64,000 nt of DNA from an uncultured Candidatus Rokubacteria bacterium (GTDB lineage Bacteria; Methylomirabilota; Methylomirabilia; Rokubacteriales; CSP1-6), in the NCBI GenBank assembly GCA_963758635.1, contig CAVWWD010000004.1, positions 192,001-256,000 of the forward strand, given 5' to 3'. A program made the position numbers and the translations under genes. The first letter of the stretch is position 1; each line of letters begins with the position of its first letter. Below, piece by piece: positions 1 through 8,102 of the stretch. The notes under the pieces are model-generated. The model was given only the letters and a program-made list of their open reading frames with translations. It was not told the DNA's origin and ran no database searches.

Positions 1-365
1 CTCGGCGACCTGGCTCTCGAAATACCGCATGGGCGCGCCCAACGTAGTCGACGGGCCGGGCACCGTCAACCCGCCGGGCTTCGGGCAGGATCGGCCCGGA
101 CCGGGCACCGGCCCGGGCGTCGGTTCGGGCAGAAGACCGCCCCCTCGATGACGGCCGCTGGCACGCTGGATCGTGAGCCCGCGCTCCGACTGATGGGCGG
201 TGGACTGGCCCCGCGGGCGCTCCAGGTGGCCCGGACCCGGCCGCTCGCGGCCGAGCCGACAACCTCCCGAGAAGCTGGTTTACTCCCCCGGGCTGTCCCC
301 CTATAGTTGAGCCCCGGCGGCCGGTCCGTCTCTTCTCCCGCAAGAGGCCGGCCGCAGGAGACGCA

Positions 366-1769
366 ATGCCGAGCGACTCCGCCGAGCCCCTCCGGGACGT
401 CCGCGCCGTTGTCCTGGTCGTGGATGACGACGTGGGGCTGCGCGAGGCGTGTCGCCTGATCCTCGAGGACGAGTTCGAGGTCCTCGACGTCCCCGACGGA
501 CCGCATGCCCTCGAGGTCCTCCGCTCCACCCAGGTCGATGTCGTGCTGCTGGACATCCGCCTGCCCGGCATGGACGGCCTCGAGGTGCTGGAGCAGGCGA
601 AGGTGATCGACGAGCAGGTCGAGGTCATCCTGGTCACCGCGGTGAAGACGGTGAAGACCGCGGTCACCGCCATGAAGCTCGGGGCCTTCGACTACCTGAC
701 CAAGCCGTTCGAGGAGGAGGAGGTCCTGGCCGTGGTGCGCCGGGCCCTCGAGCGGCGGGCGCTCCAGCGCGAGGTGGTCTTCCTGCGCTCCGAGCTCGCG
801 CGCCGCCAGGACGGCGACGAGATCGTGGGCCAGTCCGCGGAGATGCGGAAGCTGGCCCAGATGATCGCGCAGGTGTCGCGCACGAGCGCCACGGTGCTCA
901 TCGCGGGCGAGAGCGGCACCGGCAAGGAGCTCATCGCCCAGGCCATCCATCGGCAGAGCCCGCGGCGCGACAAGCCGTTCGTGCCCGTCAATCCCGCCGC
1001 CATCGTCGAGTCGCTGATCGAGTCGGAGCTGTTCGGGCACGAGCGCGGCGCGTTCACCGGCGCGTACCAGCGAAAGCTCGGCAAGTTCGAGATGGCCCAG
1101 GGCGGCACCCTCTTCCTGGACGAGATCGCGAGCCTCCGGGCCGAGCCGCAGACGAAGCTCCTGCGCGTCCTCCAGGAGCGGGAGATCGAGCGGGTGGGGG
1201 GGACGCGGCGGATCCCGGTGGACGTGCGCATCATCGCCGCCACCAACGTGGACCTCAAGCGCGCGGTGGCGGCGGGCGGGTTCCGCGAGGACCTCTACTA
1301 CCGGCTGAACGTGGTGCCCATCGCCGTGCCGCCGCTCCGCAGCCGGAGCCAGGACGTCCCGCTGCTCGTCGAGCACTTCATCCGCCGCTACAACCAGCGC
1401 TTCGGCAAGCGCATCACGGGCGTCGCGCCCTCCGCCATGGCCGCCCTCGAGGACTACCGGTGGCCGGGCAACGTGCGCGAGCTGCAGAACGTCGTGGAGC
1501 GGGCGGTGGCGCTGGTCGACGCCCCCCAGATCCAGCTCCAGGACCTCCCGATGGACGTGGTCATGGGGGAGCGGCGGCTGCGGGACGGCGAGGCGCCCGC
1601 GGTGCCGCTCGCCCAGGCCGTCGAGGACTTCGAGCGTCAGATCGTCCAGCGGGTCCTCGAGCGCGTCCGCTGGAGCCAGCAGGACGCGGCGATGATCCTG
1701 GGCCTGCACCGGAACACCCTCCTCCGCAAGATCGCGAAGTGGGGACTGGTCCCACCGCCACGTCGATAG
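366..1769 (+). CDS. Sigma-54-dependent response regulator (NtrC/AtoC family: REC-AAA+-HTH)
   Basis: REC domain (LVVDDD, LLDIRLP, KP), Walker A GESGTGKE, ESELFGHERGAFTGA motif, WPGNVRELQN, C-terminal Fis-type HTH; GGAG RBS upstream. Confidence 0.96.
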   Translation: MPSDSAEPLRDVRAVVLVVDDDVGLREACRLILEDEFEVLDVPDGPHALEVLRSTQVDVVLLDIRLPGMDGLEVLEQAKVIDEQVEVILVTAVKTVKTAVTAMKLGAFDYLTKPFEEEEVLAVVRRALERRALQREVVFLRSELARRQDGDEIVGQSAEMRKLAQMIAQVSRTSATVLIAGESGTGKELIAQAIHRQSPRRDKPFVPVNPAAIVESLIESELFGHERGAFTGAYQRKLGKFEMAQGGTLFLDEIASLRAEPQTKLLRVLQEREIERVGGTRRIPVDVRIIAATNVDLKRAVAAGGFREDLYYRLNVVPIAVPPLRSRSQDVPLLVEHFIRRYNQRFGKRITGVAPSAMAALEDYRWPGNVRELQNVVERAVALVDAPQIQLQDLPMDVVMGERRLRDGEAPAVPLAQAVEDFERQIVQRVLERVRWSQQDAAMILGLHRNTLLRKIAKWGLVPPPRR

Positions 1770-1791
1770 ACCGTCACCGGCGACGGTGCAG

Positions 1792-1890
1792 TGCACCACC
1801 GGCGGTGCATGCCGGCCAAGTGCGCGCCGCGCCTGACGCGGGACGCCTCAGCCGTCCCTCGACGCCGCGCGGTGCAGCGTCCACAGTGCA
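1792..1890 (+). promoter_or_regulatory. Two candidate enhancer (bEBP-binding) sites, TGCA-N10-TGCA
   Basis: TGCACCACCGGCGGTGCA at 1792-1809 and TGCAGCGTCCACAGTGCA at 1873-1890, about 85-180 bp upstream of a sigma-54 promoter; resemble NtrC-type sites. Confidence 0.6.
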
Positions 1891-1972
1891 GACCGCGGAT
1901 CTTGCATGGTCGCGACGGCGCCGATTCAGCTTTTGATGATGCGGAGTTGCACGACACGCAGCGGGCGTTCGC

Positions 1973-1989
1973 CTGGCGTCCGATTTGCT
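1973..1989 (+). promoter_or_regulatory. Sigma-54 (-24/-12) promoter
   Basis: CTGGCGTCCGATTTGCT: GG(1975-76)-N10-GC(1987-88), close to consensus YTGGCACGRNNNTTGCW; next to a sigma-54 activator gene. Confidence 0.8.
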
Positions 1990-2064
1990 TAGCCTTTGCG
2001 TCGCTGTACGGGCCCTCGTGGGGAGGGCCCATGGTGTCACACACCCGACCGAGGAGGACGAACG

Positions 2065-2202
2065 ATGGCGAAGGCCTGGGCGGTGATCATGATCGTGTCC
2101 GCGTTCCTGCTGGTGGCTCCCGTGATCGAGTACGGCGCGGTGGAGTCGAACCACATCTTCACCGCCATCGGCAACGCCGACGGCGGCGCCGGCGGCGACT
2201 AG
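2065..2202 (+). CDS. Small 45-aa putative exported peptide MAKAWAVIMIVSAFLLVAPVIEYGAVESNHIFTAIGNADGGAGGD
   Basis: Strong RBS GAGGAGG at 2051-2057, ATG 2065, GC3-biased codons, signal-like N-terminus; first gene after the sigma-54 promoter. Confidence 0.75.
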   Translation: MAKAWAVIMIVSAFLLVAPVIEYGAVESNHIFTAIGNADGGAGGD

Positions 2203-2220
2203 GAGGCCTTCTCTCCCTCG

Positions 2221-3838
2221 ATGATCCACTGGCGAGGCCTCGGCGTCACCATGCTCCTCCTCGCCAGCACCGCCATGCCCGTGGTCCCGGCTCACGCGCA
2301 GGACAAGGCGGAGCCGGGTCCGCGGGCGGTCGTCAACGGAGCCTACCGGCGTCCGCTCGGCGGCGATCCGGCCACGCTGGACCCTGTCCGGACCAACGAC
2401 ATCTACGGCCGCGCGGTGACGCAGCAGATCTTCGACGGCCTCGTCCAGTTCGATCAGACGCTCACCATCAGCCCGGCCCTGGCCCAGTACTGGCGCGCCT
2501 CGCGCGACGGGCTCACCTGGACCTTCACGCTGCGCAAGGGCGTGAAGTTCCACCACGGGCGGGACGTGAGCGCGGACGATGTCGTGTACTCGTTCACGCG
2601 CATCCTCGATCCGCGGCTCCGGTCGGACGCCGCCGACCTCTTCGGGCACGTCAAGGGAGCGGCGGAATTCCGTGAAGGACGCGCGAAGAGCGTGTCCGGC
2701 CTCGTCGCGCTCGACCGCCACACCGTGCAGGTCACGCTCGAGGAGGCGCAGATCGCCTTCGTGTCGCTCCTCGCCCTGGGCCACGCCCGCATCGTCCCGA
2801 AGGACGTGGTCGAGCGGCTAGGCGACGCCTTCGGCACCCACCCCGTGGGCACCGGGCCCTTCCGGTTCGTCCGGTGGGAGCGCGGGAAGGAGATCGTGCT
2901 CGCCGCCAACCCCGACGCGTTCGACGGCGCGCCGCGCCTGGCCCGCCTCGTGTACCGGATCTTCCCCGGCGAGGCGCACGACGTGATCTGCCAGGAGTTC
3001 GAGCAGGGGCAGCTCGAGGAGAGCCCGGTGCCGCCGGCGTGCCGGAACAAGACCTCGGACCCGCGCTACCAGTACCTGCGCCGCTCGACCTTCACGGTGC
3101 GGTTCTACGGCCTCAACACCCGGATGCGCGGGCTCGACGACGCGCGCGTGCGCCGCGCCATCGCGCACGCCCTGGACCGCGAGCGCACCGTCCAGGAGAT
3201 CTTCCTCGGCCGCCATCAGCCCGCGCGCGGCATCCTGCCCCCGGGCATGCCCGGCTACAACCCGGGGCTCCGGGCGCCCGGCCACAGCGTCGCCGAGGCC
3301 CGCGAGCTCCTCAGGCGGGCGCGGGCATCCGGACGGCCGCGGGATCGGGCCGCTCACCATCTGGTCGGCGGCGCGGGGGGAGCGGATCGACCAGGAGCTG
3401 GGCACGGTGAAGCGGCAGCTCGCCGCCGTCGGCATCGCCGCCGACGTGCGCTACGAGACCGACTGGCCGACGTTCACGAAGGCGCTCGGCGAGCGCAAGT
3501 ACCCGATGTTCGTCTACGCCTGGCACGCCGACGTGCCCGATCCGGACAACTTCCTGTACAAGCTCTTCTACTCGAGGGGCGCGCGCAACCTGACGGGTTA
3601 CGCCAATCCCGTCGTGGACGACCTGCTCCTCCGGGCTCGCGAGGAGCCCGACCTCGGCCGGCGCATCGAGCGGTACCGGCGCGCCGAGCAGATCATCGTC
3701 GACGACGCGCCCATCATTCCCGTGTGGCACTACACGTACGAGCGGCTGTTCCAGTCCTACGTGCGCAACGTGGAGGTGAACGGGCTCGGCGACGCGTACC
3801 TCCCGCTGCGCAAGATGTGGCTCGAGGCCCCGCGGTGA
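2221..3838 (+). CDS. Peptide/nickel-type ABC substrate-binding protein (SBP family 5), one frameshift near 3320
   Basis: Signal peptide (AHA-Q), DPATLDP, IFDGLV, WTFTLRKGVKFH, GTGPF; C-terminal part (W-ADVPDPDNFL, DAPIIPVW) continues in the 3407-3838 frame. Confidence 0.9.
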
Positions 3839-5763
3839 GAGCGCTCGTCCGCCCCCCGTGGCTCCGCTTCGGCTTCAGCTCGCTCCAGCGGAAGCTCCTC
3901 CTCGGCACGCTCTTCGTGCTCGTCCTCATCATGGCCGGCGTCATGCTGGTGGTGGAGTACAGCCAGCGCGAGGCCATCGTGTCCGAGGTCCAGCGGCGCG
4001 GCGAGGTCCTCGCGCGGAGCCTCGCCGCCACCTCGACCACGCCGCTCTTGCTCTACAACTTCACCGCCCTCGAGCAGAACGTGACGCGCATCGCCCGCGA
4101 GGCCGACGTGGTGTACGCCATCGTCCTCGACGGCGACGGCCGGGTGGCCGCGCACAGCCGCCGGCCGGACCTGGTCGGCCGCGGCCTCGAGGGCGCCGTC
4201 GACGCGCGCGCGGGCCGCGCCGGCGCGCTCCTCATCCAGGAAGCCACCAGCCGGGCCGCTGGGCAGACGGTGTACGACATCGCCGTGCCCGTGTTCGTGG
4301 AGCAGCAGCGCTGGGGCACGGTGCGCGTGGGTCTGTCGCGGCGGCGGATGGACGCGGAGATCACGGAGACGCGCCGCGAGCTCGCCATGCTGTCGCTCGT
4401 GACGCTCGCCCTGTGCGGGCTCGGCGCCGCCTTCGTGGCGCGGCGCATCGCGGGCCCCGTGAAGCAGCTCTCGGCCGGCGCCGCCGCGGTGGCGCGCGGC
4501 GAGCTCGACCAGTGGATCCCCCCCGTGGGGTCGGACGAGCTGGCCCAGCTCGCGGCCACGTTCAACCACATGACCGCGCGCCTGCGCCACCAGCGCGCCG
4601 AGCTCGAGGCCGCCCACGCCGAGCTGCGGCAGCGCTTCGAGGAGGTGGCCGAGCTGAACCGCTACACCGACAACATCCTCGGATCGGTGACGAGCGGCAT
4701 CGTCACCCTGGACCTGGACGGGCGCATCGGCACGATGAACCCGGCGGCGGAGATGCTGACCGGCCTCTTCGCGCCGGACGTGAAGGGCCACTACTGCGCG
4801 GAGGTGTTCACGGCGAGCCCCGAGGTCGCCGAGGCCCTCATGGAGACGCTGACCAGCCGTCACGGCCTGCCCAACGTGTCGCTCACGCTGCGGCGGCCCA
4901 ACGGCTCCACGCTGCCCATCGAGATGAGCACGGCGCCGCTGCGCGGCCTCGAGGCCAAGGAGCTGGGTGTGGTCGGCGTGTTCCGCGACGTGAGCGTGCT
5001 GCGGGAGCTCGAGGAGCAGGTGCGGCGCTCCGACCGGCTCGCCGCGCTCGGCACCCTCGCCGCCGGGCTCGCGCACGAGATCAAGAACCCGCTCACCGCG
5101 CTGCGTACGTTCAGCCGGTTCCTGCCGCGCAAGTTCGACGACGAGCGGTTCCGCGAGCGCTACCAGCGGGTCGTCCCCCACGAGCTCGAGCGCATCAACG
5201 CCATCGTGGAGCGGCTGCTGGAGCTGGCGCGTCCGGCGCGGCTGACCTTCCAGCCCGTACACCTACCGGAGCTGCTCGACCGCGTGCTCGACCTGTACGC
5301 CGGCCAGATCGAGACCAGGGGCATCGAGGCCCATCGCGAGTACGCGCGCGACTGCCCGCCCATCCAGGCCGACGCCGAGTACCTGTACCAGGCCATCGTG
5401 AATCTCGTGGGGAACGCGCTGGAGGCCATGGAGGCGGGCGGCCGCCTCACGCTGCGCGTGGGGTGGTTCCACGGCAGCGATCCCTTCGGCCCCGTCCGGG
5501 GCCCGGCGTGGCGCCTCAAGGTGGAGGTGGAGGACACGGGGATCGGGATCGGCGCCGACACCGCCGGAAAGGTATTCGACCCGTTCTTCACCACGAAGGG
5601 CGCGGGGACCGGCCTCGGCCTCGCCCTCACGCACAAGATCGTCGAGGACCACCACGGCCGCATCACCTTCAGCAGCGTGCCGGGGGCGGGGACCACGTTC
5701 CGCATCGTGCTGCCCGTGACGCCCGGAGGGGCGCCGCGGATCAGAAAGGGACAGGATGCCTAG
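3835..5763 (+). CDS. Membrane sensor histidine kinase (periplasmic sensor-HAMP-PAS-HisKA-HATPase)
   Basis: GTG overlaps the SBP stop (GTGA); two TM helices, HAMP (DELAQLAATFNHM), PAS, AHEIKNPL, N/G1/F/G2 boxes (DTGIGI, FDPFFTTK, GTGLGL). Confidence 0.93.
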   Translation: MRALVRPPWLRFGFSSLQRKLLLGTLFVLVLIMAGVMLVVEYSQREAIVSEVQRRGEVLARSLAATSTTPLLLYNFTALEQNVTRIAREADVVYAIVLDGDGRVAAHSRRPDLVGRGLEGAVDARAGRAGALLIQEATSRAAGQTVYDIAVPVFVEQQRWGTVRVGLSRRRMDAEITETRRELAMLSLVTLALCGLGAAFVARRIAGPVKQLSAGAAAVARGELDQWIPPVGSDELAQLAATFNHMTARLRHQRAELEAAHAELRQRFEEVAELNRYTDNILGSVTSGIVTLDLDGRIGTMNPAAEMLTGLFAPDVKGHYCAEVFTASPEVAEALMETLTSRHGLPNVSLTLRRPNGSTLPIEMSTAPLRGLEAKELGVVGVFRDVSVLRELEEQVRRSDRLAALGTLAAGLAHEIKNPLTALRTFSRFLPRKFDDERFRERYQRVVPHELERINAIVERLLELARPARLTFQPVHLPELLDRVLDLYAGQIETRGIEAHREYARDCPPIQADAEYLYQAIVNLVGNALEAMEAGGRLTLRVGWFHGSDPFGPVRGPAWRLKVEVEDTGIGIGADTAGKVFDPFFTTKGAGTGLGLALTHKIVEDHHGRITFSSVPGAGTTFRIVLPVTPGGAPRIRKGQDA

Positions 5764-6853
5764 AGCCGTCTCGGAGGGGCGGGGCCTCGCCCCGCAGGGC
5801 GCGCAGATCGCGCGCGCCGACGTCGTCGCCAAGGTGACGGACGGCGTGTTCCACACGTTCAACAACATCCTGGCCGTGGTGCTCGGCCGCGTGGAGCTGA
5901 TGCTGGGGCAGGTGGACGCGGGGCGTCTCAAGGCCGCGGAGCTGCGCAACGGGCTCCTGTCCGTGCAGAAGGTGACGCAGGACGCCGCCGACCTCCTCGA
6001 GCGCGTGCAGGAGCTCGCGCAGCCGCCCGCCGACGAGCCCGAGCGGACGGTGGACCTCAACACCGCGGTCGGCGAGGCCATCGCTTTCGTGCGACCCCAC
6101 CTCGTCCTGGACCGCGCGCCCGGCGCCGCCCTGCGCCTGGCCTGCCGCGTGACGAGCGCGCCGGTGCTGGTTCGCGCGCGAGCCAGCGCGCTGCGCGAGC
6201 TGCTCGTGACGCTCCTCGTGGACGTGACCGACGCCACGCCGGACGGCGGCGAGATCACCGTGGAGACGGCGACCGCCGAGGGGGGCGCCATCCTCCACGT
6301 GGGCGGAGTCGGCGCCGCGGATGCCGGCCCGCCCGACCTGCTCGCCACGCGGGACCTGGTGGCCCGGTACGGCGGGAGGATCTCGGTGCGGCGGGAAGCC
6401 GATGGCGCCTCCACGGTGAGCCTCACACCGCCCGGCGCGATGACCGTGACGCGGGCCCGCCGCGCCGTCGATGCCGCGGTGCCGCCGGGCCTCGCCGTGC
6501 TCGTGGTCGAGGACGAGCCGGCGCTCCGGAGCCTGCTGCGCGACTTCCTCGAGTCCCAGGGCTGTCGCGTCTCCGTGGCCGCCTCGGGGTCGGACGCGCT
6601 TGCGGAGCTGGCCACGTCCGAGTGGGAGGTCGTGCTCTCGGACCTCCTCCTGCCCGGCGCCAGCGGGCTGGACATCGCCCAGGCGGTCAAGTCGCGGTCA
6701 CCGCGCACCGGCGTCGTGCTCCTCTCCGGGAAGCTCCTTCCCGAGGACCTGTGCGCGGACGGCGAGACGGTGGACGTGGCCCTCGCCAAGCCGGTGGACC
6801 TCGGCAAGCTCGGCAGCGTGATCGCCACCCTGGGGCGCCGATCGCGCGAATGA
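5756..6853 (+). CDS. Atypical hybrid protein: HisKA-like H box, degenerate ATPase domain, C-terminal receiver
   Basis: FHTFNNILAVVLG H-box; no recognisable N/G1/G2 boxes; REC motifs LVVEDE, LSDLLLP, LLSG, LAKP. Confidence 0.8.
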   Translation: MPRAVSEGRGLAPQGAQIARADVVAKVTDGVFHTFNNILAVVLGRVELMLGQVDAGRLKAAELRNGLLSVQKVTQDAADLLERVQELAQPPADEPERTVDLNTAVGEAIAFVRPHLVLDRAPGAALRLACRVTSAPVLVRARASALRELLVTLLVDVTDATPDGGEITVETATAEGGAILHVGGVGAADAGPPDLLATRDLVARYGGRISVRREADGASTVSLTPPGAMTVTRARRAVDAAVPPGLAVLVVEDEPALRSLLRDFLESQGCRVSVAASGSDALAELATSEWEVVLSDLLLPGASGLDIAQAVKSRSPRTGVVLLSGKLLPEDLCADGETVDVALAKPVDLGKLGSVIATLGRRSRE

Positions 6854-6872
6854 CGGCGAGGGCGGCCGTGCT

Positions 6873-8099
6873 ATGCTTCGGGCCGTGCCAGCGCCCGCGG
6901 ACGTGACGATCATCGGCGGAGGCATCGTCGGCCTCGCCACCGCCATCGCGCTCACCGAGCGTCACCCGCGGGCCCGCGTGCAGATCGTGGACAAGGAAGC
7001 GCGCGTCGGCACGCACCAGACCGGCCACAACAGCGGCGTCATCCACTCCGGCATCTACTACAAGCCCGGCTCCTTCAAGGCGCGCCTGTGCGTCGAGGGC
7101 GCCCGGCTCATGACGGAGTTCTGCGACACCCACGGCATCGCCTACGAGCGCTGCGGCAAGGTCATCGTGGCCACGTCCGAGGCCGAGGTGCCGCGTCTCG
7201 AGACCCTGCATCAGCGCGGCACGGCCAACGGCGTGCCCGGTCTCAAGATGATCCCGGGCGAGGCGGTCAAGGACTACGAGCCGCACTGCCGCGCCGTCGG
7301 CGCGCTGCTGTCGCCGGCCACCGGCATCGTGGACTACGTGCAGGTGGCCCAGGCCATGGCCGCCCTCGTGGAGAAGCGCGGCGGCGAGGTCACGACGAGC
7401 GCGGCGGTGACGGCGATCCGCCGGGACGGCGCCGGCCTGGTCCTGGAGACGGCCCGCGGCCCGGTCCACACGCGTCACGTCGTCAACTGCGGCGGGCTGC
7501 ACTCCGACGCGGTGGCGCGCCTGATGGGCATCGAGCCCGAGGTGCGCATCATCCCGTTCCGCGGCGAGTACTACATGCTGCGCCCCGAGCGGCGCTCGCT
7601 GGTGCGCGGGCTCATCTACCCTGTGCCGGACCCCGAGTTTCCGTTCCTCGGCGTGCACTTCACGCGCACGATCCACGGGGACGTGGAGGCCGGCCCCAAC
7701 GCGGTGCTCGCCTTCGCCCGCGAAGGCTACACGATGGGCACGCTGAACGTGGGTGAGACGATCGGCACCTTCACGTACGGCGGGTTCTGGGCGATGGCCC
7801 GCCGCTACTGGCGGATGGGGATGTACGAGTTCTACCGCTCGATGAGCAAGGCCGCGTTCGTCCAGTCGCTCCAGCGGCTCGTGCCCGACCTCCGCGCCGA
7901 GGACATCGTGCCCGGCGGCTCCGGGGTCCGCGCGCAGGCGGTGTCGCCCGACGGCTCGCTCGTGGACGACTTCAAGATCAGCGTCACCGCGGGCGCCGTC
8001 CACGTGCTGAACGCGCCCTCGCCCGGGGCGACCGCGTCGCTCGCCATCGGCCGGCACATCGCCGGCCTCGCCGCCGACACGTTCACGCTCCCCGCCTGA
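6873..8099 (+). CDS. lhgO: L-2-hydroxyglutarate oxidase
   Basis: GGGIVG FAD motif, HQTGHNSGVIHSGIYY, PFRGEYY, IYPVPDP-FPFLGVHFT, NAPSPGATASLAIG. Confidence 0.92.
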   Translation: MLRAVPAPADVTIIGGGIVGLATAIALTERHPRARVQIVDKEARVGTHQTGHNSGVIHSGIYYKPGSFKARLCVEGARLMTEFCDTHGIAYERCGKVIVATSEAEVPRLETLHQRGTANGVPGLKMIPGEAVKDYEPHCRAVGALLSPATGIVDYVQVAQAMAALVEKRGGEVTTSAAVTAIRRDGAGLVLETARGPVHTRHVVNCGGLHSDAVARLMGIEPEVRIIPFRGEYYMLRPERRSLVRGLIYPVPDPEFPFLGVHFTRTIHGDVEAGPNAVLAFAREGYTMGTLNVGETIGTFTYGGFWAMARRYWRMGMYEFYRSMSKAAFVQSLQRLVPDLRAEDIVPGGSGVRAQAVSPDGSLVDDFKISVTAGAVHVLNAPSPGATASLAIGRHIAGLAADTFTLPA

Positions 8100-8102
8100 C
8101 CC

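Follow-up and report, generated by a model that had tools for sequence, protein, structure and literature searches.

Genes and features at the locus

The 64-kb stretch of DNA analysed here (the window) carries, within its first 7 kb, a run of genes that are all read from the forward strand. At 366-1769 lies the gene for a response regulator of the NtrC/AtoC type, with a receiver, a sigma-54 AAA+ activator domain, and a Fis-type helix-turn-helix (Pfam Response_reg at 2e-28, Sigma54_activat at 8.5e-72, and HTH_8 at 3.5e-11). Its product is presumed to be the activator of the promoter downstream of it. Then comes the small gene that is the subject of this analysis (2065-2202), followed by a gene for a family-5 solute-binding protein (SBP) of the OppA/DppA type (2221-3838), matched by Pfam SBP_bac_5 in both halves. 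This SBP is an orphan and carries its own signal peptide (AHA|Q). The next gene (3835-5763) encodes a sensor histidine kinase, built, by its Pfam matches, as transmembrane (TM) segment, sCache_3_2, TM segment, HAMP, PAS, HisKA and HATPase; its GTG start overlaps the stop of the SBP gene (GTGA).

The run ends with a gene (5756-6853) for a protein of 365 amino acids with a C-terminal receiver (Pfam Response_reg at 3.6e-17). It is no more than a possible member of the group. Its N-terminal part has an H-box-like motif, HTFNNIL, and no Pfam kinase match. Four of the relatives' loci that were scanned (L033, L036, L038, L043) have a single-domain receiver 3' of the kinase.

As it stands in the window, the SBP gene runs in frame 1 to about 3320 and in frame 2 from there to 3838. 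This is an assembly error, an extra base near 3322, and the gene is intact, because the near-identical contigs from all three DNA runs that cover the site, drawn from two studies, lack one base there (3318-3327). The same base is missing from one RNA-library contig from a relative, and the relatives' SBP gene is a single frame.

The small gene starts with an ATG at 2065 and stops at 2200-2202, with a Shine-Dalgarno sequence (GAGGAGG, 2051-2057) placed 7 nt 5' of its start. Its product is a protein of 45 amino acids, MAKAWAVIMIVSAFLLVAPVIEYGAVESNHIFTAIGNADGGAGGD. The same stop also closes a longer, TTG-started frame (1996-2202); GGAGG-type sites stand 5' of the ATG throughout the alignment of upstream regions (A3) used below. 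The product begins M-A-K, continues with a hydrophobic stretch from A4 to I21 (18 residues, ending FLLVAPVI), and closes with a polar, acidic tail of 24 residues that ends in GNADGGAGGD. A preliminary description, made from the letters alone, had already remarked on the ribosome-binding site, the frame, and a lysine followed by hydrophobic residues and this ending; all of these are there, the lysine being K3.

Conservation of the small gene

A frame of 45 codons is, of course, unremarkable by itself in DNA of 70% G+C. Nor is the fold of the region around the start (1990-2070) remarkable in the single sequence (z = -1.38, with 18 of 200 shuffles as stable). The case for the gene, and for a hairpin ahead of it, therefore rests on comparison with relatives.

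Such relatives are many within a narrow lineage. A six-frame search of 61 related genomes gave a match to the peptide in 49 at E <= 10 and in 46 at E <= 1e-4, the remaining three being chance-level matches only. Across the phylum (Rokubacteria/Methylomirabilota), 121 of 251 genomes have profile matches, among them 90 of 158 in family f1 and 19 of 21 in family f4, and some whole genera have none (g49 with 10 genomes, g51 with 21). The other families of the class include members with diverged copies, and the window's own genome holds no paralogue. A word-indexed search of 5.8 billion proteins returned 50, nearly all of 45 amino acids and all without a Pfam domain; the few that have names are called "hypothetical protein." Only 65 of 1.84 billion cluster representatives matched a profile at E <= 1e-3, and the family is therefore small and lineage-bound.

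A scan for the core motif, taking one genome per species, found 65 loci, mostly titled Candidatus Rokubacteria, Rokuibacteriota or Methylomirabilota; about 14 of these are titled only "uncultured bacterium" or after another phylum. Peptide-bearing contigs are filed in bins named for Nitrospira, Dehalococcoidia, Binatia, Verrucomicrobiia, Gaiellaceae and Actinomycetota (L072, L057, L089, L098, L111, L115). These six are short (2-7 kb), except one of 68 kb, and the foreign-phylum bins are probably binning errors rather than instances of gene transfer. Long matches from the exhaustive search were set aside: P0108, P0079 and P0112 look like wrong-frame or chimeric gene calls, and P0090 may be another.

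The substitutions among the relatives are those of a coding sequence. Over 91 distinct coding sequences, the entropies of the three codon positions are 0.66, 0.50 and 1.12, and the pooled pN/pS is 0.47 in frame, against 1.27 and 1.64 in the two shifted frames. Constraint is strongest in FLLVAPVIESG, at the outer end of the hydrophobic stretch, where pN/pS is 0.145; the N-terminal part has 0.60, and the rest of the tail 0.55. Conservation and a coding-type pattern of substitution are what the preliminary description had asked of a genuine gene, and both are found. Its check on whether the C-terminus is the conserved part turns out negative, the most conserved segment lying further in and the last residue varying.

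RNA-library contigs from three studies cover the gene. One (2039-2497) extends from the peptide gene to within that of the SBP, and shows two differences; others span 2066-2279 and, from a relative, 2103-2203. This is only a weak sign of expression, because such contigs are assembled and may contain DNA. One RNA contig ends at 1997 and another starts at 2039, and contigs cannot show RNA ends.

The comparisons thus establish the 45-codon frame as a genuine small gene that Rokubacteria conserve. The peptide matches no Pfam family (E <= 0.01, the MgrB model included) and no NCBIfam family (E <= 1), a search of a protein atlas found unnamed clusters only, and we found no description of the family or its module in Rokubacteria in the open-access full-text literature. 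By the Pfam and NCBIfam models, it belongs to no described family.

Promoter, upstream sites, and leader hairpin

Ahead of the small gene lies a predicted sigma-54 (-24/-12) promoter, TGGCGTCCGATTTGCT (1974-1989, forward strand), with a predicted transcript start near 1999-2001. It is the sole match to TGGY-N7-TTGCT in the window, where 0.32 would be expected. The relatives have it too: TGG[CT]-N7-TTGC stands 61-98 nt 5' of the ATG in 74 of 75 distinct first copies of the gene and in none of 15 inner copies of arrays, the lone exception being a copy within a widely spaced array. The background for this motif is 0.015 per 150 nt; 145 matches occur in 1.49 Mb, and about half of them are these promoters.

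Further upstream is an enhancer-like dyad, TGCACC-N6-GGTGCA (TGCACCACCGGCGGTGCA, 1792-1809), 182 nt from the promoter, with an extra half-site GGTGCA at 1785-1790, so that the whole feature spans 1785-1809. In 43 of 72 loci the promoter is preceded, at a distance of 90-240 nt, by dyads of the form TGCAC[AC]-N-[TG]GTGCA, which often come in pairs about 21 bp apart. Three words, TGCACA, GTGCAC and CACAGT, show an enrichment of 11-19 fold upstream. We infer that the dyads are bound by the adjacent NtrC-type regulator. The peptide-SBP-kinase operon thus carries the full sequence signature of an activator-dependent sigma-54 unit, that is, a promoter with GG at -24 and GC at -12, upstream activator sites, and an activator gene adjacent to them, the start position being a prediction. 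Autoregulation of the operon would be the reading of such an arrangement.

The leader of the predicted transcript holds a conserved hairpin of 8-9 bp with the loop A/GUGGG, about 10-30 nt into the transcript. In the window it is formed by GGGCCCTC and GAGGGCCC (2010-2030, forward strand), with 8 bp and a 5-nt loop, and it folds as first described. It was examined in alignment A3, which comprises 57 of 74 distinct upstream regions; the 17 left out are f4-type or odd regions in which the hairpin lies elsewhere. Here, 89.5% of cells are paired, against 40-64% with slid partners, and changes on both sides are seen in eight of nine pairs. The covariation score of 0.468 compares with 0.219 in shuffles and was reached by none of 500. 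The loop, (A/G)UGGG, is conserved as well. Rfam has no family for the hairpin, whether the region or the whole window is searched.

A pyrimidine tract just 3' of the -12 element (TTGCTCTCTCCTCC) is complementary to the region of the ribosome-binding site (GGAGGAGAGAGC). In the window the two lie at 1989-2000 and 2049-2064, and they are also found in the upstream regions of L009-L011 and L015. A pairing of the two was dropped as a candidate: RNAalifold does not predict it, and the tract is probably upstream of the transcript start.

Anatomy and topology of the peptide

The family set comprises 89 distinct proteins of 41-48 amino acids that share one plan. The N-terminus has a single K/R in 86 of the 89. 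The hydrophobic stretch has 18-23 residues and a mean Kyte-Doolittle value of 2.7. The tail, of 20-26 residues, is free of K/R in 80 of the 89, has 2-4 D/E, and contains a cysteine in only 22. Invariant, or nearly so, are A18, P19, V20, I21, E22, S23, G24, F32, A34, G36, A38 and G41. The last residue is variable, being D in 28 proteins, W in 28, G in 10, E in 8, F, M and S in 4 each, and others in the rest. Distant members follow the same plan, with MKK, a hydrophobic stretch, VPAME, and an ending SSTQVFSRVGMAEG-GGGGE. From genus to genus the tail is nearly identical, and no pherotype-like diversification is seen between strains.

This anatomy predicts a protein that inserts with its N-terminus inside and its C-terminus outside, placing a tail of about 23 residues in the periplasm, because by the positive-inside rule the charge lies in the N-terminal K/R and the tail is mostly K/R-free. 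The preliminary description had likened the layout to that of the Phr/PapR precursors, with their export signal, spacer and C-terminal mature peptide. The hydrophobic core of a signal peptide has 7-15 residues; by this rule of thumb, a stretch of 18-23 residues is of transmembrane length, and the likeness is not supported. No signal-peptidase site is conserved either. After LVA comes a Pro, and just one site with small residues recurs, IES|G, in 65 of 89 proteins; it has Glu at -2, and reads IEY|G in the clade of the window. The neighbouring SBPs have plain AxA signal-peptidase sites.

Several other identities were tried and rejected. The Phr/PapR receptor route finds no partner, the neighbours being an NtrC-type regulator, an SBP and a histidine kinase, with no adjacent RRNPP protein or permease. 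A double-glycine leader, as in ComC or a class II bacteriocin, does not fit an N-terminus of M-x-K and hydrophobic residues, and no C39 exporter occurs in the 90 frames scanned. A type IV or Flp pilin would have a prepilin leader ending in Gly, which is absent, and the conserved Glu here comes after the hydrophobic stretch. A Pup-like GGE/GGQ end, an RTX-like GGxGxD calcium site, and an aromatic end like that of outer-membrane proteins were all dropped, as they do not suit a membrane-anchored protein whose final residue is variable.

A conserved module

The genes around the peptide travel together. Of 20 loci of 16 kb, 19 have the NtrC-type gene directly 5' of the peptide gene, as do five of five distant loci, and 18 have the kinase 3' of the SBP. 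These 18 show the full series of activator, peptide(s), SBP and kinase; one of the other two is cut by a contig end, and the second (L047 of genome G050) has peptide copies and an SBP, without activator or kinase within 8 kb. In the distant families, activator, peptide and SBP are kept in five of five loci, and a kinase, here without PAS, in four; the fifth locus ends at a contig edge. The gene order and the promoter persist in these families too. The suggestion that the peptide gene belongs with the adjacent kinase system is borne out by this order.

Peptide and SBP are tightly coupled. The SBP start lies 19 nt downstream of the peptide gene in the window, and 2-30 nt past the peptide stop in most of 54 loci. 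Among the 61 genomes, 43 have both genes and 13 have neither; three have the peptide only and two the SBP only, and in all five discordant genomes the locus lies at a contig end.

Beyond these genes, nothing is conserved around the module. The 90 of 118 flanking frames that were scanned, delivered by a crude frame caller, show no recurrent radical-SAM enzyme, protease or C39-type ABC exporter, and no Opp permease recurs beside the module. The conserved neighbours likewise include no exporter, no Opp permease and no receptor of the RRNPP type, and within 1-8100 of the window there is no adjacent permease. In one relative (G027), a Pup-proteasome cluster comprising a proteasomal ATPase, a Pup ligase and a proteasome subunit (L032, 11616-15895) lies about 3.5 kb from the module; it is not conserved beside the module in other loci.

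The binding protein and a predicted complex

Among solved structures, the SBP is nearest to 8upi (2e-66), and then to HbpA, DppA, OppA and MppA, with PrgZ at 3.9e-32. These nearest solved relatives bind peptides. A complex of SBP and peptide was predicted with the mature SBP and peptide residues 16-45 from G003, the closest relative with an intact peptide/SBP gene pair, each supplied as an alignment of 50 rows that we had made ourselves.

The complex scored 0.76 (runs 0.69, 0.76 and 0.76), and the best of three controls scored 0.00; the mark set for this score is reached by 116 of 157 solved complexes and by two of 215 mismatched pairs. The score is, of course, the model's own confidence, and as many complexes of OppA/DppA with peptides have been solved, likeness to these may drive the pass. 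Any two runs have 57% or more of their contacts in common. With a pLDDT of 49-54, the fold of the partner itself is uncertain.

In the predicted interface, peptide residues 33-45 (TAIGNAEGGAGGD) meet SBP residues from both lobes, including the invariant R303 and the segment W443-A445-D446; this is the ligand cleft of the family. The last 13 residues (TAIGNA-E/D-GGAGGD) are thus predicted to sit in the cleft between the SBP lobes. The earlier idea of a C-terminal mature peptide is, in this respect, half upheld: the predicted complex makes the tail the recognized part, and the conserved signal-peptidase site that would free it is absent. Peptide residues 16-32, the most conserved segment included, are unplaced in the model.

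Covariation between the partners was also examined. By mutual information between the last residue of the tail and the SBP columns, position 262 ranks first, with Arg accompanying acidic ends. Three of the 12 top mature positions lie within the predicted interface, and a tree-based test of these data has only four independent pairs, and so no power.

FLLVAPVIESG, together with the rest of residues 22-32, lies outside the predicted interface, and something else must therefore also constrain the peptide. This suggests a second contact, with the kinase or with a protease. It leaves room for a model in which the peptide bridges SBP and kinase, and also gives weight to an alternative in which the peptide is a direct modulator of the kinase, after the manner of MgrB or SafA, binding the kinase TM helices, the Cache domain, or both, and feeding back on it, with the SBP sensing something else. 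Size and predicted type II topology are like those of MgrB and SafA, control by the protein's own system, as it would be here, is also a feature of mgrB, and the host phylum is diderm, outer membrane and LPS genes being reported in PMC5712423. Against it stand the lack of a Pfam match to MgrB or any other family, and the kinase TM helices, which are no more conserved than the Cache domain and give no hint of an intramembrane partner. This alternative leaves unexplained the co-inheritance and coupling with the SBP, the prediction that joins SBP and tail, and the tandem amplification described below. We hold it to be unlikely.

Tandem copies, a possible release, and other roles

The peptide gene occurs in 1-5 tandem copies, with repeats in family f4 and in one distant genome. 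The largest array, in G055, has five copies 216 nt apart; G048 has four, and G081 three that are identical. The tails within the arrays are nearly identical. In the G055 array (L022, 1285-2288; G055:C37:163338-164335), the inner copies each have their own GGAGG site, with a short GC hairpin before it (of the type GGCGCC-N4-GGCGCC) and no promoter, and the first copy differs from the rest in its N-terminal half only. A further array (L047; G050:C18:327551-328549) has a spacing of about 430 nt, with two copies intact and three split by frameshifts, so that residues 1-27 and 24-44 match in different frames; the SBP then follows. Errors in the assembly could have produced this array; it could equally be a copy of the module that has moved or is in decay.

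Amplification of this kind fits a product that is consumed or exported. One alternative is a released pheromone, in which the tail is cut off, accumulates outside, and is sensed through the SBP and kinase of neighbours, inducing its own operon in the manner of comCDE or agr. Such a signal gene would stand first in a probably self-induced operon that also holds its receptor, the near-identical arrays (five, four and three copies) would give it high output, and the tail is the part whose recognition is predicted. The anchor-length hydrophobic stretch and the lack of a conserved signal-peptidase site speak against this, as does the absence of a protease or export gene from the flanking frames scanned. 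In a diderm host, a peptide of about 2 kDa must cross the outer membrane too, and the tail, nearly unchanged across genera, shows no diversification like that of pherotypes. The chances of this alternative seem poor to us.

Of a tethered and a released tail, the tethered form is somewhat favoured. Its grounds are an anchor of TM length, the want of a conserved signal-peptidase site, a tail that stays much the same from strain to strain, and a diderm host.

Tandem runs of small hydrophobic peptides are also typical of RiPP and bacteriocin loci, and a frame only 19 nt ahead of the SBP start might serve to set expression of the SBP and kinase. The peptide could on these grounds have no signalling role, being instead a RiPP or bacteriocin precursor, a small toxin, or a regulatory upstream frame. 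Yet the conserved neighbourhood comprises only the activator, the SBP, the kinase and sometimes a receiver, with no exporter, immunity gene or modifying enzyme among them, and most tails lack cysteine. A purely regulatory frame would not need the purifying selection on amino acids that is seen class-wide, tail included. A role outside signalling thus appears very improbable.

A proposed self-encoded ligand

The data point to a reading that combines both ideas of the preliminary description, pheromone precursor and membrane modulator: a membrane peptide whose tail is the ligand of an SBP. Specifically, the peptide would be the self-encoded ligand of the OppA/DppA-type SBP of its own operon, acting in an autoregulated loop. 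To this we give roughly even chances.

The loop might run as follows. The tail of the membrane peptide would fill the cleft of the SBP, either tethered or after release; the 11 residues between the membrane and the bound part would permit binding while tethered. The loaded SBP would act on the periplasmic Cache domain of the kinase, which would phosphorylate the adjacent activator, and this, in turn, would drive the sigma-54 promoter. The operon would in this way govern the supply of the peptide, receptor and kinase that it encodes. With up to five tandem copies, the dose of peptide would rise relative to that of the receptor.

A more elaborate version, specific to Rokubacteria/Methylomirabilota, is tentative. 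Here, the tail would be a built-in ligand of the SBP, and the membrane-proximal segment would contact the Cache kinase, so that the peptide would bridge receptor and kinase; external peptides, or proteolytic release of the tail, would then switch the self-amplifying sigma-54 loop, with the dose set by copy number. If true, a diderm phylum would have an autocrine or quorum circuit based on a peptide, made of parts that have not been seen together before.

The self-encoded-ligand reading, if true, would describe a self-encoded signalling loop of an undescribed kind, and possibly a case in which one operon encodes both a binding protein and its ligand. What the analysis delivers is a small-protein family in a fixed module with a predicted receptor, a kinase, an activator and a promoter. 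With a partner named and a read-out at hand, the function of an unannotated gene of 45 codons becomes directly testable. Genome annotation overlooks this gene, which is present in about half of the genomes of its phylum. That phylum is uncultured yet abundant in soil. To our knowledge, only a few model bacteria have yielded small membrane proteins that tune sensor kinases, and diderm bacteria rarely sense peptide signals outside the cytoplasm.

Comparison with known systems

The peptide systems of Gram-positive bacteria offer the first comparison. In comCDE, agrBDCA and Phr/PapR, a short precursor gene lies by its receptor in a self-induced operon, and the C-terminus is the active part. The module here likewise has a precursor-like gene beside its predicted receptor, in an operon that is probably self-induced. 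It differs in lacking AgrB, a C39 exporter and a double-glycine leader, as well as an RRNPP receptor, an Opp permease and a conserved signal-peptidase site; it has instead a sigma-54 promoter with an NtrC-type activator, in a diderm host. PrgZ, like the SBP here, is a family-5 binding protein related to OppA. It binds the cCF10 pheromone and passes it to the Opp importer, through which it reaches a receptor in the cytoplasm, whereas here there is no adjacent permease and the neighbour is a kinase.

Binding proteins that serve kinases are a second comparison. In LuxP-LuxQ, TorT-TorS and AioX-AioS-AioR, a periplasmic binding protein without a transporter is encoded beside the kinase, and AioXSR ends in a sigma-54 activator. 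In all of these the ligand is an external small molecule. The operon here, in contrast, also encodes a peptide that is predicted to fill the cleft.

In PilA-PilS-PilR, an NtrC-type regulator acts on a sigma-54 promoter, and the kinase receives feedback from a small product anchored in the membrane. The peptide here has no prepilin leader (G|FTLIE), its hydrophobic segment precedes the conserved Glu, and it is not a pilin.

The small modulators of PhoQ come closest in size and form. MgrB has 47 amino acids and SafA 65, the C-terminal 25 residues of SafA binding the PhoQ sensor, and both are described in PMC8534201 as small single-pass proteins under two-component control that act at the sensor. 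MgrB-PhoQ and SafA-PhoQ share with the plan predicted here a single-pass protein of 45-65 amino acids with a short periplasmic C-terminal tail; ScrA may be another small membrane modulator of kinases. There is no relation in sequence, and the present gene, which can occur in tandem arrays, opens the very sigma-54 operon that encodes the sensor. Its predicted partner, moreover, is not the kinase but a separate peptide-binding protein. In none of the analogues compared does a peptide encoded by a gene occur together with an orphan receptor of the Opp kind, a Cache kinase and a sigma-54 loop.
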